Source: Candidatus Dojkabacteria bacterium (GTDB taxonomy: Bacteria > Patescibacteriota > Dojkabacteria > SC72). Taken from it: DNA of 50,276 nt. The notes under the pieces were generated by a model, which was not told the origin of the DNA, did not search any database, and was given only the letters and a program-made list of their open reading frames with translations. Position 1 is the stretch's first letter. Each line of letters begins with the position of its first letter. The position numbers and the translations under genes are program-made. The stretch is from the NCBI GenBank assembly GCA_016182915.1, contig JACPFP010000003.1:456390-506665 (forward strand). Direction: 5' to 3'. Positions 41,971-45,857 of this stretch are shown one piece after another.

Positions 41971-42333
41971 TTAATCTTTTGCCTCTATATTTCTTGGCAT
42001 ACTTTCTTTCCACTCTCCAATAATAGTAATTAACCTTCTTGGTTCTATATTGTTAATATAGTGGTCCGATCCAAAACGCTCACTATAGCTATAATCTATT
42101 CCAGAGTAGACTGCCCACCCTTTACCAGAGTCTTGAGCAACCTCAACCATATCTGAAAGATTAGGAATGGAACCTCCTATTAGTACTCCAGCAACATCAT
42201 CTTCACGAACTAAGGTGCCAAGAGCTTCCTCATCGCCACTACTGAATAGCTGAAGTTCAATATTTGCAAGCTTGGTGACGGGAACAATATTTTGATACTG
42301 ATCCACACTTGTATGTACAAATATAACTTTCAT
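41971..42333 (-). CDS. Hypothetical protein, possible degenerate receiver-like fold
   Basis: KVIFV..., AGVLIGG and AVYSG give an alternating beta/alpha pattern like REC but without the acidic residues. Confidence 0.5.
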   Translation of the reverse strand: MKVIFVHTSVDQYQNIVPVTKLANIELQLFSSGDEEALGTLVREDDVAGVLIGGSIPNLSDMVEVAQDSGKGWAVYSGIDYSYSERFGSDHYINNIEPRRLITIIGEWKESMPRNIEAKD

Positions 42334-42350: not shown

Positions 42351-44660
42351 TTATATCTGCTCAATCATTAATATACCATCTGCAAGCCCTAACCCTACAA
42401 GTTCCTGCCATACAGATTCCGTAATATATGGGATAAATGGATGCATAATCTTCAAATTCTCTTTGAGAAGATAAACAAGCTCAGAAAGAAGTTCTATTCT
42501 CTTCTCTGAATTTACCTTCTCATCCTTAATTGCACCCTTTACCTCTTCAATCCACTTATCACAGTATTCATGCCAGAAGAACTCTCTAATATCCTCTGTA
42601 CCAAGATTGTACTGATGCTTCCCCAAATATCTTTTTACTCTCGCAATATGAGCGTTACTCTGTGTAACTCTCTCTGACTTTATATTTCCTTCTGCAAGCC
42701 TCTTTGAAATCTCCAAAATCTCTGAATCATCAATATTCATCAGTACAAATCTACTCGCATTCCATATCTTATTTATGAAATTTCTATTTCCTTTAATCTT
42801 CTCCTCTCGAAGTGGTGCATTTGCACCTGGTAGAGCATCGGAGTAGTACCAGAGACGAAGGGAATCAACTCCATATCTATCGAAAAGTTCTATCGGCGAA
42901 ACAGTATTACCCTTGGATTTTGACATCTTTGAACCATCAGGCGCATTGATTATTCCATGTAGAAAAACTGTATGGAAAGGAGTCTTCCCAGTTCTGTAAA
43001 GACTTAACATCATCATTCTTGCACTCCACCAGAAAAGAATATCCCTTCCGTGTACCATAACATCTGTAGGGTAGTATTCATCGAAACCATTAATACTCAT
43101 TGTAGTTGAGAATGGCCACTGACCTGAACTAAACCAGGTATCAAACACATCACTCTCTGATTCAAACTCAAGGTTCTTCTCGTTCTCCCAATCGGGATCT
43201 ACCTCAGGTTTCTCAACCGATGCAAATACCTTTCCACTTCCATGGGCTTCCTTCCCAACCTCTTTCTCAAAATCTTGCGTTGTCTTTCCTGGATTATCTG
43301 CTAGCCAATCATGAAGCTCCTTGCTTCCGCTATACCAGATAGGGATTCTATGTCCCCACCAAAGTTGTCTTGAAATACACCATGGTTCAATATTTTCAAA
43401 GAAATATGTTAGGGCCTTCTGCTGACCATCAGGTATAACCTTGGTATCTCCTTTCTTTAATGCCTCAAGAGCTTTCTGTGCTAATGGTTTTGTATTTACA
43501 TACCACTGGAAGGAGATTATTGGTTGAATTGGGGTATCGCATCTCTCACATACAGCAACCTCATGTTTTATCCTTTCCAATTTTACAAAGAGGCCCAGTT
43601 CATCGAGTTCTTTCACAAGAGCTTTTGAACATTCAAGTGTATCCATTCCTAAAAATCTCTCAGGAATATTTCCACTCATCTTTCCTTCCTCATTGATTAC
43701 GTTGATAATCTCAAGATTATTTCTCTTCGCAATCTCAAAATCGACAGGGGAGTGGGCAGGAGTTACCTTCAACGCTCCGGTTCCAGTTTCAATATCAATA
43801 TCATCATCCGTTATAATAGGTATCTCTCTATTGGCGATTGGAAGAAGAACTTTCTTACCAACAAATTCTTTATATCTATCGTCTTTAGGGCTTACTGCTA
43901 CAGCTGTATCTCCCAACATAGTTTCAGGGCGAGTAGTGGCAACGGTAATTCCCTCAACTCCAAATTTATCCTTAGCTCTCTTTTTATCTTCTTCTTCTAC
44001 AAATGGATATACAATGTATGCGAATATCCCAGGAAGTTCTTTATGGTATGTATCAATATCTGCAAGAGCCGTTCTACAGTTTGGACACTGGTTTATAATT
44101 CTCTTATCTCTATATATTAGTCCGTCATTTAACATTCTAAAGAAGGTGTCGTACACAACAGATGTTAATCTAGGGTCCAGAGTGAAGAATTCTCTATCCC
44201 AATCTGTGGAAAGCCCGATTCGTTTCTCCTGACTCCTAGCATTGTTAGACGCATTTAGACAGAACTCGTAGCAACGTTTATTGAACTCATCCCTTCCTAA
44301 ATCCCATTTATCTATACCCTCTGATCTAAGAATTTTTGTATAAACGCTCTCTGTTTGTATACCAGCATGATCTTTACCTGCGATTAGTAGGGTTGGGTGG
44401 CCTGTCATCCTATTAAACCTTGCCATTGCATCATGAAATGAGTATCCGCATGTATGTCCCATATGTAGATCTCCGTTTGCATTAGGAGGGGGGAGGGTCA
44501 TGACAAAAGGTTTCTTAATCTCTTTATTGGATTTCTCAAGATATTCCTTTACGTTTTCAGGTTTGAAATATCCACTATCTTCCCAAAGTTTATACATTTT
44601 CTCTTCCTGACTCTTTGAATCAAACGCTTTTGGTATTAGCTCTGCTTTACTGCTTTCCAT
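42351..44660 (-). CDS. valS: Valyl-tRNA synthetase (lacks the C-terminal coiled coil)
   Basis: PPPNANGDLHMGH, DHAGIQT, ATTRPETMLGD, WCISRQLWWGH, DTWFSS and KMSKSKGN motifs. Confidence 0.98.
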   Translation of the reverse strand: MESSKAELIPKAFDSKSQEEKMYKLWEDSGYFKPENVKEYLEKSNKEIKKPFVMTLPPPNANGDLHMGHTCGYSFHDAMARFNRMTGHPTLLIAGKDHAGIQTESVYTKILRSEGIDKWDLGRDEFNKRCYEFCLNASNNARSQEKRIGLSTDWDREFFTLDPRLTSVVYDTFFRMLNDGLIYRDKRIINQCPNCRTALADIDTYHKELPGIFAYIVYPFVEEEDKKRAKDKFGVEGITVATTRPETMLGDTAVAVSPKDDRYKEFVGKKVLLPIANREIPIITDDDIDIETGTGALKVTPAHSPVDFEIAKRNNLEIINVINEEGKMSGNIPERFLGMDTLECSKALVKELDELGLFVKLERIKHEVAVCERCDTPIQPIISFQWYVNTKPLAQKALEALKKGDTKVIPDGQQKALTYFFENIEPWCISRQLWWGHRIPIWYSGSKELHDWLADNPGKTTQDFEKEVGKEAHGSGKVFASVEKPEVDPDWENEKNLEFESESDVFDTWFSSGQWPFSTTMSINGFDEYYPTDVMVHGRDILFWWSARMMMLSLYRTGKTPFHTVFLHGIINAPDGSKMSKSKGNTVSPIELFDRYGVDSLRLWYYSDALPGANAPLREEKIKGNRNFINKIWNASRFVLMNIDDSEILEISKRLAEGNIKSERVTQSNAHIARVKRYLGKHQYNLGTEDIREFFWHEYCDKWIEEVKGAIKDEKVNSEKRIELLSELVYLLKENLKIMHPFIPYITESVWQELVGLGLADGILMIEQI

Positions 44661-44683
44661 TTATATTTAATGTTAGGTTAAAT

Positions 44684-44737
44684 AAAAAGCCCTCATCTAA
44701 ATAAAAATATACTATATATTTATACTTAGATAAGGAC
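44684..44737 (-). terminator. T-box attenuator terminator
   Basis: Minus strand GTCCTTATCTAAGTA...TATTTAGATGAGGGC followed by TTTTT; overlaps the 3' arm of the antiterminator. Confidence 0.85.
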
Positions 44738-44912
44738 GGATATTCCGTGGTACCACCTTATTTCCCTATATTATTACTAATACAGACTTTGTCCCATACT
44801 TTTTAATATGGAGATGCATTTACAGTACATCTTCTGATGAGTTCTACTAAGTTAGTATTAATACTAACTTTTCTTCTCATACCTCCAGAGTGACTGGCTC
44901 TGTACAATCGGT
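44684..44912 (-). ncRNA. T-box riboswitch of valS (Val specifier GUC, ultrashort Stem I)
   Basis: T-box AAATAAGGTGGTACCACGG; antiterminator AUAAGG-UGGUACC-ACGG/CCGU-CCUUAU; Stem II with AAGAA and AGUAGAA; Stem I cagag-ccaGUCa-cucug-GA. Confidence 0.9.
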
Positions 44913-44918
44913 TAGGGA

Positions 44919-44948
44919 ATTATAGCAAAAAAAGCGGTAGCATTACAA
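44919..44948 (-). promoter_or_regulatory. Promoter of the valS T-box leader
   Basis: TG-C-TATAAT at 44927-44919, 6 nt before Stem I; TTGTAA 18 nt further upstream. Confidence 0.75.
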
Positions 44949-45293
44949 ATCTTCTTCTTCACTGCTTCTAAATGCACCTAAAAGGTCATAGTATATCTTT
45001 TTATCATCGGCATATACTTCATCTTCCGAAACATATTCTACATTTTCAGAAAGAACTAATACAGAAATTACCCGAATAGAATCATTTCGATAAGGATTTA
45101 AATGAAGAATCAAAGAATAGACATCTCCTTCGGGGTCACGATCGATTGCTATGACTATTCCATAGCTACCAGGATCTACAATGTACTCACCAAACTGATA
45201 TGGATCGCTTGAATCAGGAAGTTTAACAAAACTCCCTGGTACGATACCTTCACTCTCACTCGTACGTTTTTCTTTTTTTCTTTTTTCTGGCAT
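44943..45293 (-). CDS. Hypothetical small acidic protein, possibly an SH3-like beta barrel
   Basis: 116 aa ORF with ATG; IVPGSFVK...PGSYGIVIAI pattern. No recognised family. Confidence 0.6.
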   Translation of the reverse strand: MPEKRKKEKRTSESEGIVPGSFVKLPDSSDPYQFGEYIVDPGSYGIVIAIDRDPEGDVYSLILHLNPYRNDSIRVISVLVLSENVEYVSEDEVYADDKKIYYDLLGAFRSSEEEDL

Positions 45294-45362
45294 TAGTGCA
45301 CTAACTGAGTATTAATTAGAAATACTTATAACTGGATCAAGTGCGAAGGAAGCGCAAGTTCT

Positions 45363-45857
45363 TTATTCTAGGATTTCCGGATTCTCGAAACTGTAGTAGT
45401 CTACAATTACATTACCTTCTGCTTCTTTCACAGAGAGTTCGTAATATTTGCTCCCGACGATGACTCGGAGATCAAGCCCTCGAAGTCCGTCAACCGAAGG
45501 GGCAAAACCATGTACTATAGCGAATACCTTATATGTATCCTGACTATCAACTATTACCGGCTCTCTGTCTCTTGATTTATAGTTCTCTGTGGTTAATACT
45601 CCTCTAGAAATTCTTTCTTGAAGAATATATAAAACTGTATCAACAAGCTTTTCCGGGATATCGAAAGGGAAGTTCTCGTATTTATCTGAGTACTCACCAA
45701 TGTAATTATTAAGCGCAGTGACGGTATTTAAAACGAATTTCTCAGGAGGACCGTCAAAGCTATCACTAAAAGGGCCATCCTTCTCCTTGAACAACTCATT
45801 TAGAAATGACATCTTCTCTGGTGTCATAGTCTCGGCTAAAAATGTTTGGGTTGTCAT
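45363..45857 (-). CDS. Hypothetical protein
   Basis: 164 aa ORF with ATG filling the gap; AT-rich upstream region with TATAAT. Confidence 0.65.
   Translation of the reverse strand: MTTQTFLAETMTPEKMSFLNELFKEKDGPFSDSFDGPPEKFVLNTVTALNNYIGEYSDKYENFPFDIPEKLVDTVLYILQERISRGVLTTENYKSRDREPVIVDSQDTYKVFAIVHGFAPSVDGLRGLDLRVIVGSKYYELSVKEAEGNVIVDYYSFENPEILE

Follow-up and report, generated by a model that had tools for sequence, protein, structure and literature searches.

T-box riboswitches are currently viewed as falling into two functional groups, a long Stem I with a platform for the tRNA elbow being associated with a transcriptional, time-limited switch, and a short Stem I with a translational switch working at equilibrium (PMC7583486, PMC10482949, PMC11297988). 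For transcriptional T-boxes, rapid capture of the tRNA is generally considered to depend on the platform of the long Stem I (PMC7583486); a switch under kinetic control might therefore not be served quickly enough by a short Stem I. Examples of the short-Stem-I type are the ileS leaders of Mycobacterium tuberculosis and Nocardia farcinica (PMC10482949, PMC7583486); this actinobacterial ileS T-box is termed 'Class III' in PMC10482949 and 'ultrashort' in PMC7583486, which cites Sherwood 2015, and, according to PMC10482949, its expression platform is mostly translational, with the Shine-Dalgarno sequence being sequestered. The same source also lists 'Class IV' T-boxes with an intermediate Stem I, such as that of Actinomyces odontolyticus ileS.

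In the present study, we analysed a stretch of DNA of 50,276 nucleotides (the window), in which a leader on the minus strand precedes the valyl-tRNA synthetase gene valS. In common with the actinobacterial ileS T-boxes, this leader possesses a short Stem I without elbow platform and with an apical specifier followed by A, as well as Stem II purine strands, a IIA/B pseudoknot, Stem III and a UGGN bulge; it differs from them in that it carries an intrinsic terminator with a U-tract rather than a Shine-Dalgarno sequestrator, in that GUC precedes valS rather than AUC preceding ileS, and in that its host is a Patescibacteria-type genome. With the canonical T-box (RF00230, 'Class I', as in Bacillus subtilis tyrS) it shares Stem II, IIA/B and Stem III and the same logic of an antiterminator bulge, a competing terminator with a U-tract and a specifier matching the synthetase, whereas the long Stem I, AG bulge, distal loop platform and internal specifier loop of the canonical form are all absent from the valS leader. 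Intermediate-Stem-I T-boxes likewise have no elbow platform and, by analogy, the valS leader probably shares their dependence on Stem II, but its specifier is situated in a terminal loop and not in a side bulge. The glyQS T-box ('Class II' in PMC10482949) is also under transcriptional control and of reduced architecture, although it retains a long Stem I and is devoid of Stem II, which is the reverse of the arrangement found here.

Results

The leader, delimited by sequence inspection from promoter through U-tract, spans 44927-44681 (minus strand), and the start of the U-tract is located 28 nt from the ATG (at 44660) of the putatively regulated gene valS (42351..44660, minus strand; 769 aa). 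The product of this gene was assigned as valine--tRNA ligase by two equivalog models, NF004349 (794 bits, cut-off 704) and TIGR00422 (769 bits, cut-off 612), and contains the domains tRNA-synt_1 and Anticodon_1. A promoter scan of 44400-45400 returned a sole sigma-70-like site, matching at 10 of 12 positions, which is composed of the hexamer TTGTAA, an 18-nt spacer and TG plus TATAAT. The extended -10 element TG-C-TATAAT (44927-44919, minus strand), already noticed in the earlier note, was evident from both the sequence and the scan, while the -35-like TTGTAA (44943..44948, minus strand) is a consensus match only. The ORF upstream of the leader, 116 aa in length, terminates in a stop codon (TAA, 44945-44943) that falls within this hexamer. 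Judged from these elements, transcription would be expected to start near A44912 or A44913. Among orthologues of the same family TGnTATAAT is positioned 4-9 nt ahead of Stem I, and up to approximately 20 nt ahead of it in other orthologues. A start far upstream, with a long Stem I, had been named in the earlier note as evidence that would count against its reading; what was found is TGnTATAAT directly before Stem I, the DNA beyond it being otherwise unrelated among orthologues.

Base-for-base sequence checking and covariation define an ultrashort Stem I of 32 nt (44881..44912, minus strand), in which the outer helix pairs ACC 44912-10 with GGU 44883-81, the inner helix pairs CAGAG 44902-898 with CUCUG 44890-86, and the 5' strand GAUUGUA of the internal loop faces GA. 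The apical loop CCAGUCA (44897-91) presents the Val specifier GUC (44894-44892) followed by A, and is 7 nt in length, reduced to 5 nt when its terminal C and A are regarded as paired. A loop of 7 nt is found in 32 of the 36 valS leaders, against 5-6 nt in the ileS paralogues and in actinobacterial ileS leaders, and the base following GUC is not a purine in three of the 36 (C in two, U in one). None of the hallmarks of a long Stem I that were sought in the valS leader (K-turn, internal specifier loop, AG bulge, distal double T-loop platform) was found; where a K-turn would be expected, the 5' side has UA in place of GA. What is present is the arrangement of the short-Stem-I class, in which a small apical loop carries the specifier and an elbow platform is absent, and the earlier description of a Stem I of about 32 nt with apical GUC followed by A and without a distal module was confirmed position by position. 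In the MAFFT alignment the inner helix exhibits changes on both sides at 5/5 pairs with 98.7% of cells paired, and the outer helix is 93.3% paired.

Stem II (44837..44880, minus strand), supported by sequence and covariation, comprises a lower helix (AUGAG 44880-76 with CUCAU 44841-37), the purine strands AAGAA (44875-71) and AGUAGAA (44848-42), and an upper helix (44870-62 with 44857-49), with every element that had been proposed for it recovered in place. The lower helix covaries at 5/5 pairs and is 92% paired, the GAA and UAGAA of the strands are nearly invariant among leaders, and the RF00230 consensus Stem II includes GAA...AGUA; by analogy with the structures treated in PMC7583486, the purine strands may form an S-turn. 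The adjoining hairpin (44832-12; AGAUGUA 44832-26 with UGCAUCU 44818-12) had been described as IIA/B-like with a CUGUAA loop, and while the hairpin itself is present, it is more exactly a pseudoknot (44812..44836, minus strand; sequence and covariation) because CAG 44836-34 pairs with CUG 44825-23 of the loop. The pseudoknot helix is 93.3% paired, CAG/CUG being exchanged for CGG/CCG and, in one orthologue read by eye, for GAG/CUC, and the hairpin covaries at 7/7 pairs in 71 model-fitted sequences. The valS leader therefore displays the Stem II strands (S-turn by analogy) and the IIA/B pseudoknot adjoining Stem I that typify the class. Two further hairpins follow, in agreement with the short hairpins claimed previously. 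A linker hairpin, CCAUAUU-AAAA-AGUAUGG (44794..44811, minus strand), is situated between IIA/B and Stem III and is found in most valS leaders of the same family and in ileS leaders, and Stem III (44766..44785, minus strand), identified by covariation, consists of CUGUAUUA, the loop GUAA and UAAUAUAG with purines on both flanks, and shows changes on both sides at 8/8 pairs with 92.4% paired.

The antiterminator (44730..44761, minus strand), identified by RF00230 alignment and covariation, is formed by helices A1 (AUAAGG with CCUUAU; 90.4% paired) and A2 (ACGG with CCGU; 92.2%) with the 7-nt T-box bulge UGGUACC (44755-44749), and its sequence AAAUAAGGUGGUACCACGG aligned to RF00230 positions about 190-219 with top posterior probability. 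Within the bulge, UGGU could base-pair with the terminal ACCA of tRNA-Val. The genome was found to encode the tRNA-Val(GAC) that the earlier note had proposed to look for, and both tRNA-Val genes carry A73 plus CCA, so that the cognate tRNA ends in the NCCA called for by the UGGN of the bulge, as had been claimed from A73. Folding further predicts an intrinsic terminator (44681..44737, minus strand), composed of a hairpin (44737-44689) followed by UUUUUAUU (44688-44681); since GUCCUUAU of the antiterminator is also used in the 5' arm of this hairpin, the two folds are mutually exclusive, which again accords with the earlier reading. ViennaRNA assigned -22.0 kcal/mol to the terminator and -6.8 kcal/mol to the antiterminator, and the minimum free energy structure of the 3' half of the leader is the terminator. 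The same arrangement, a terminator that overlaps the antiterminator 3' strand and is followed by a U-tract, was observed in 15/15 evaluable orthologues (-21 to -34 kcal/mol), the U-tract containing at least five U in 12 and exactly four in the other three, while the sequence of the stem is not conserved. A simple terminator scan returned zero sites, as the hairpin falls outside its stem and loop rules, and the terminator call is based on the ViennaRNA folds instead. In the same genome the argS, tyrS and lysS leaders are long-Stem-I T-boxes with terminators, and terminator-type T-box control is thus in use in this organism.

The 270-nt leader yielded a fold z-score of -4.5, equalled by none of 200 shuffles, and the decoding domain folded alone reproduces Stem I, Stem II and IIA precisely as proposed. 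Rfam produced no match in the whole window at gathering threshold. The Infernal search with RF00230 suggested in the earlier note therefore had a divided outcome, in that E-value mode returned a match (E = 2e-7 on 601 nt) which, owing to the missing long Stem I, reached only 40 bits against a gathering threshold of 93. For comparison, the canonical tyrS, lysS and argS leaders of the same genome scored 47-80 bits with RF00230, and its ileS leader was missed entirely. The covariation test on related leaders, which had likewise been suggested, was computed on MAFFT alignments not fitted to structure, with shuffled and slid controls, and all helices were found to covary. In the decoding alignment 83.8% of cells pair, compared to 62.3% in shuffles (0/500 reaching the observed value) and 28-49% with slid partners, and changes on both sides were observed at 25/27 pairs of the decoding domain and 13/18 pairs of the discriminator domain. 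No more than two of 500 shuffles reached any observed measure, none did so on three of the five measures per alignment, and the slid controls paired far less. The 71 model-fitted sequences gave a like result.

These 71 sequences are the matches, in the loci searched, of a model built from valS leaders. Thirty-six of them precede valS and all bear GUC (35 read by script and one, L083, by eye because an insertion had misaligned it), while 28 precede ileS and all bear AUC. The specifier consequently agrees with the gene in 64/64 valS and ileS cases, as expected of a T-box, and GUC, the conservation of which the earlier note had considered decisive, is retained in 36/36 orthologous leaders before valS, alongside AUC in 28/28 before ileS. 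In 30 valS loci, taken from the genome studied here together with 40 relatives, a leader was detected within 450 nt in 16 using a strict motif, a figure that undercounts, further leaders being located farther upstream, and that is affected by one false motif (L038). Within the order, 87 of the 120 genomes possess at least one such leader; across the phylum, a match was obtained in 18 of the 151 genomes sampled. The design of the valS leader is also that of the ileS and trpS leaders of the same genome and is used by many relatives, and Asn-specific leaders of this design occur elsewhere in the phylum. A contig pattern scan, covering 80 loci among at least 119 stretches and thus a sample rather than a census, uninformative on absence outside Patescibacteria, identified the same leader in loci with titles such as Candidatus Saccharibacteria and Patescibacteria group among the matches listed, in keeping with the CPR origin presumed in the earlier note. 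Chance is presumed to account for 62 of the 80 listed pattern loci, which are without a T-box motif, and probably for L120 as well. As in the intermediate-Stem-I T-boxes, the valS leaders of related Saccharibacteria (L114 and L168) and of an Abditibacterium (L157) possess a small extra hairpin, GUC in a side bulge, and terminators.

When applied to five actinobacterial genomes, the valS-leader model matched the ileS leader of Glutamicibacter (34 bits; E about 1e-3 by an approximate calibration) and gave no match in the other four. The Glutamicibacter leader shares this design of Stem I, its apical loop measuring 6 nt and containing AUC, and by eye its Stem I is nearly superimposable on that of the ileS leader of the genome studied here; its antiterminator 3' strand pairs with AAGGA just before the ATG, and it is without a U-tract. 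The likeness to actinobacterial ileS T-boxes put forward in the earlier note is clear by eye in this one leader. As the same decoding design is there joined to a Shine-Dalgarno sequestrator, the notion of a hybrid of two classes for valine holds; its presentation as a singular case does not, since the ileS and trpS leaders and the relatives share the design. The valS leader is a recombination of known modules and, on the sequences compared, the hybrid design is lineage-wide and not a one-off.

Discussion

The sequence evidence makes it highly probable that the leader is a tRNA-Val-responsive T-box which controls valS by transcription attenuation, and in which a short-Stem-I decoding module is coupled to a terminator/antiterminator switch. 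Transcription would start a few bases past the extended -10, leaving a Stem I of only 32 nt, the apical loop of which would offer GUC to the GAC anticodon of tRNA-Val. Stem II, positioned by the IIA/B pseudoknot, would then clamp the codon-anticodon duplex and in this manner substitute for the absent elbow-docking platform, as in the actinobacterial ileS leaders. With an uncharged tRNA bound, the terminal ACCA of that tRNA would pair with the UGGU of the bulge, thereby stabilising the weak antiterminator and permitting readthrough into valS, whereas the much stronger terminator would form when the tRNA is charged or absent, and transcription would stop at the U-tract.

The decoding module matches that of the translational class, and short Stem I elements have been tied to translational control (PMC7583486, PMC10482949, PMC11297988); together with the zero sites returned by the simple terminator scan, this could suggest that control is exerted chiefly at the level of translation or mRNA stability and that the hairpin and U-tract do not constitute a working terminator. 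We consider this improbable, since Shine-Dalgarno sequestration was looked for and the alternative helix was found to end 28 nt before the ATG and to cover no ribosome-binding site, the actinobacterial comparator pairs AAGGA instead and is without a U-tract, and at least five U are maintained in 12 of 15 orthologues, and four in the rest, despite an unconserved stem sequence. That the leader is a decaying relic from which regulation has been lost would be in keeping with the tendency of reduced genomes to lose regulation, with the low Rfam score and with a match in only 18 of the 151 phylum genomes sampled. It is nevertheless a very improbable reading, given that compensatory changes keep all helices paired across families, that the specifier follows the gene in all 64 valS and ileS cases, and that at least one such leader persists in 87 of the 120 genomes from the order.

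Scarcely credible is an ordinary long-Stem-I T-box, transcribed from within or before the 116-aa ORF, of which the short hairpin would represent the specifier part only. The RF00230 alignment does begin at 44971, within the upstream ORF, and the start site is a predicted one; in this region, however, the posterior probability of that alignment is low, non-pairing marks and an insertion of 60 nt occur, and Stem II is made to serve as the 3' half of Stem I. Genuine long-Stem-I leaders of the same genome are quite different, and the upstream DNA of orthologues is unrelated except for the TGnTATAAT adjoining Stem I. This reading was rejected on the grounds that GUC is enclosed in a closed 7-nt loop, the 5-bp stem of which covaries at 5/5 pairs, and that the conserved TGnTATAAT adjoins Stem I.

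No description of a short-Stem-I valS T-box with a terminator was found in the literature searched on Patescibacteria, Saccharibacteria or short-Stem-I T-boxes, and the TBDB list of class-I T-boxes with truncated Stem I may hold such leaders. Set against the division of T-boxes outlined at the outset, the valS leader represents a naturally occurring, conserved counter-example, encountered for three or more amino acids in one order, and it offers a direct test of whether co-transcriptional tRNA sensing needs elbow docking. The Val, Ile and Trp sensors are compact, at about 230 nt, and are possible small engineering parts. Furthermore, since RF00230 misses such leaders at its cut-off, amino-acid sensing is under-counted in reduced, host-dependent bacteria.

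Actinobacteria are known hosts of cultivated Saccharibacteria, according to PMC11665869 and PMC13622651, and the decoding module that the leader shares with Actinobacteria may reflect common descent or transfer, the expression platform having been swapped later. It is tentatively proposed, at a likelihood that we place just short of even, that Patescibacteria widely use T-boxes which decide termination kinetically and co-transcriptionally without a tRNA-elbow platform, for Val, Ile and Trp in this order and for Asn elsewhere in the phylum. If this is true, the necessary time or affinity would derive from a slow or pause-prone polymerase, from a tight clamp between Stem I and Stem II, or from the conserved linker hairpin at 44811-44794, and elbow docking would not be a general requirement for transcriptional T-boxes.

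Results

A complete T-box-type leader lies in the 282 nt that separate valS (42351-44660) from a 116-aa ORF (44943-45293) on the minus strand. Its coordinates and motifs, as claimed in the earlier note, all proved correct. The downstream gene passed two NCBIfam valine--tRNA ligase equivalogs, with 794 bits (cut-off 704) and 769 bits (cut-off 612). The encoded ValRS is short (769 aa), as it is in relatives, and matches only positions 2-684 of the 860 in the valS profile, so that the C-terminal part of a typical bacterial ValRS is apparently missing. The three minus-strand ORFs adjacent to valS, i.e. 44943-45293, 45363-45857 (164 aa) and 41971-42333 (120 aa), had no match in Pfam or NCBIfam.

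A scan of 1 kb revealed a single promoter-like site, comprising a -35-like TTGTAA (44948-44943), an 18-nt spacer and an extended -10 TG-C-TATAAT (44927-44919), all on the same minus strand as the elements that follow. Stem I (44912-44881) consists of ACC:GGU and CAGAG:CUCUG and presents the Val specifier GUC (44894-44892), followed by A, in its 7-nt apical loop CCAGUCA. Stem II (44880-44837) places AAGAA opposite AGUAGAA between two helices, and in the IIA/B pseudoknot CAG (44836-44834) pairs with the CUG of a hairpin loop. Stem III (44785-44766) lies upstream of the antiterminator (44761-44730), which bears the T-box bulge UGGUACC, and the terminator is a 49-nt hairpin (44737-44689) followed by UUUUUAUU, the valS ATG lying 28 nt past the start of the U-tract. 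Since the terminator reuses GUCCUUAU of the antiterminator, the two structures are mutually exclusive, as had been proposed, and the terminator is far more stable (-22.0 versus -6.8 kcal/mol). The decoding domain folded alone reproduces the drawn structure exactly, and the whole leader has a z of -4.5, none of 200 shuffles folding as well. A linker hairpin between pseudoknot and Stem III (44811-44794), with a partly conserved GUAU...AUAC core, recurs in most valS leaders of the same family and in ileS leaders; it is not known as a standard T-box element.

The genome encodes 45 tRNAs, including tRNA-Val(GAC) and tRNA-Val(UAC), and both tRNA-Val genes have A73 and an encoded CCA. The GAC anticodon would thus pair with the specifier GUC, and the ACCA end with the UGGU of the bulge.

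The Rfam T-box model RF00230 did not match the leader at its gathering score; in E-value mode it returned 40 bits (gathering 93; E = 2e-7), with only the antiterminator confidently aligned. To place Stem I, this alignment had to reach into the upstream ORF and open a 60-nt insertion, and it carries non-pairing marks there. Across the whole 889-kb genome the model found seven leaders at E < 1e-6, every one below its cut-off, and did not find an eighth that precedes ileS.

valS loci were sought in 40 relatives and in the genome itself, and 30 were returned, 16 of which carry the leader within 450 nt upstream according to a strict motif; further relatives carry it farther upstream, beyond a small inserted ORF. 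In some of these (L061 in G005, L070 in G052, L054 and L056) approximately 500-750 nt lie between leader and valS and include a small ORF, of 179 aa in L061 and of at least 214 aa in L070; the T-box would then act on both genes as one unit.

Covariation was measured on MAFFT alignments, none of which was fitted to structure. The inner helix of the ultrashort Stem I described in the earlier note changed on both sides at 5/5 pairs (98.7% of cells paired), as did the lower Stem II helix (5/5), and the pseudoknot helix was 93% paired, with CAG/CUG replaced by CGG/CCG. For the decoding domain as a whole 83.8% of cells were paired, a level reached by 0 of 500 shuffles (62.3%), versus 28-49% with slid partners. 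In the discriminator, Stem III exhibited both-side changes at 8/8 pairs and A1 and A2 were 90-92% paired, the pairing and covariation score being equalled by no shuffle. The same covariation picture was obtained from 71 sequences fitted to R1, a covariance model of the decoding domain (Stem I, Stem II and IIA/B) built from valS leaders, although such fitted counts lean towards the model.

The gene downstream of each of these 71 matches was assigned by tblastn with the ValRS and IleRS of this genome. All 36 leaders that precede ValRS have GUC in the apical loop, at its 3' end: 35 were read by script, and L083, misaligned by an insertion, shows CUGUCA by eye. The base 3' of GUC is A in 32 of them, C in 2, and G and U once each. 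AUC takes the place of GUC in 28/28 leaders preceding IleRS. Two of the remaining seven matches are truncated by contig ends (L066, with GUC, and L080); L101 precedes an AlaX-like gene, L090 is a partial match on this genome's long-Stem-I lysS leader, and the other three (L082, L084 and L088) are described below with the Asn-type leaders.

A canonical long Stem I would require transcription to start far upstream, and for the valS leader it is made very unlikely by the position of the -10 element: in orthologues of the same family only 4-9 nt separate TGnTATAAT from Stem I and the DNA farther upstream is unrelated, while in other families the -10 sits 10-21 nt before Stem I, which leaves no room for such a stem if transcription begins where this promoter predicts. 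The terminator is conserved: 15/15 evaluable orthologues (a 16th contains Ns and was left out of the count) possess a hairpin, with energies of -21 to -34 kcal/mol, that starts in or just before the antiterminator strand CCGUCCUU, and a U-run comes after it. The sequence of the hairpin's upper part is not conserved, and a kept hairpin and U-run with a variable upper stem is the pattern that would be expected from selection for a terminator. At L036:1230-1500 (G028) the terminator stem of a valS leader is enlarged by tandem short repeats on both arms; this region is broken by Ns and its U-run is weak.

Within the order, 87 of the 120 genomes have an R1 match, in two score populations (valS and ileS); phylum-wide sampling gave matches in 18 of 151 genomes, 12 of them outside the family. 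A third version was observed in trpS leaders of this genome (G000:C4:191391-191700, L002) and at 11 of the 16 relatives' trpS loci examined (L232-L246). Its Stem I has a K-turn (UGAU opposite GGAG) and a covarying 4-5-bp helix, topped by the 8-nt apical loop AGAAUGGG, which is invariant and contains UGG for Trp; all of these leaders carry, by eye, a terminator-like hairpin and U-run, with UGGU or UGGC in the bulge. This genome's TrpRS has an N-terminal extension of approximately 150 residues that is absent from several relatives, matches to which start at about query residue 156-161.

In other families of the phylum, short-Stem-I leaders at L082:1501-3018 and L084:2-1594 present AAC (Asn) in the apical loop and precede aspartate--tRNA(Asn) ligase and bacterial-type aspS, which suggests that tRNA-Asn charging may control a non-discriminating AspRS. 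The R1 match at L088, which has no Stem I, precedes another aspartate--tRNA(Asn) ligase.

A pattern scan of approximately 185,000 species' genomes yielded at least 119 stretches, 80 of which were listed as loci; among these 80 a T-box motif lies downstream in 18, one probably by chance. A short apical-loop Stem I is present in 12 of the 17 motif-bearing loci among the matches listed, with titles naming Patescibacteria group, Candidatus Saccharibacteria, Candidatus Dojkabacteria, 'uncultured bacterium' and, for one short contig, Gammaproteobacteria. Three of the listed 17, all valS leaders (L114 and L168 from Saccharibacteria, L157 from Abditibacterium), have an intermediate Stem I with a 3-4-bp extra hairpin on top and GUC bulged out on the 3' side, and a terminator-like hairpin with a U-run comes next; they resemble the 'Class IV' decoder but differ in their transcriptional platform. 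Two (one Oscillospiraceae, one Dehalococcoidia) have a canonical long Stem I. The listed loci are a sample of the matches, and other lineages may carry such leaders as well.

Long-Stem-I leaders with the same kind of terminator also occur in the genome under study (argS region, tyrS and lysS). One at G000:C4:207672-208261 (L001), whose specifier is apparently AGA (Arg) and whose bulge reads UGGC, lies directly upstream of three tRNA-Arg genes (UCU, GCG, UCG), the first with G73, fitting the bulge, and then an 868-aa ORF which by eye looks like ArgRS with an extra N-terminal domain. Because the terminator is separated from the first tRNA gene by a TATAAT, T-box control of the tRNA genes is only a possibility.

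Discussion

Based on these findings, we conclude that this is a genuine, conserved valS T-box leader, and very probably one that works by tRNA-Val-dependent antitermination, the tRNA binding, termination and start site of which we infer from sequence. Its switching half is a classical terminator, and its decoding half functions like the short-Stem-I class of actinobacterial ileS, of which it is probably a member.

Evidence for the latter assignment was sought in five actinobacterial genomes, reached via pattern-scan loci, of which R1 matched one, Glutamicibacter (34 bits, E ~1e-3 on a rough calibration), upstream of an ileS whose product is 44% identical over 199 aa to the IleRS of the genome under study. 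That leader shares the decoding design of the valS leader; it has a K-turn-like UGAU opposite GGA, a 4-bp Stem I helix, a 6-nt loop CCAUCA, GGAAGAA and CAGUAGAA in Stem II and a CGG...CCG pseudoknot. Unlike the valS leader it lacks a U-tract, and the 3' strand of its antiterminator can instead pair with an AAGGA that immediately precedes the ATG, as in the published translational design of short-Stem-I leaders. In the genome under study, the ileS leader (G000:C1:162404-162760 on the minus strand and outside the window; R1 38 bits) has a TATAAT, Stem II, pseudoknot and T-box bulge and a Stem I like that of Glutamicibacter (4-bp helix, 6-nt loop CAAUCA with AUC), but ends in a terminator and U-tract, as do 19 further ileS leaders of the same design in the order. 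The likeness of decoders together with the difference in platform supports an actinobacterial-type decoder wired to a terminator, as judged against one actinobacterial sequence.

Transcriptional T-boxes are stated generally to need the long Stem I platform, and short or ultrashort Stem I has been associated with translational, mostly actinobacterial leaders, the time limit of a transcriptional switch being the reason given (PMC7583486). Four T-box classes were defined in 2023; Classes III and IV (short and intermediate Stem I), exemplified by actinobacterial ileS, 'mostly regulate translation initiation' (PMC10482949). The TBDB searches with the translational model were confined to Actinobacteria and to class-I hits whose Stem I was truncated (PMC7778990), which implies that such hits existed. 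Our full-text literature search returned no paper linking T-boxes with Patescibacteria, CPR or Saccharibacteria and no short-Stem-I transcriptional valS leader; among the papers covered, none describes this combination, its valine specificity or its occurrence in this host lineage.

The hybrid proposed in the earlier note holds as regards its composition, but it is not unique. The leader recombines known modules, and the published 'generally' and 'mostly' allow exceptions; it is one of a lineage-wide set that serves Val, Ile and Trp and, elsewhere, Asn.
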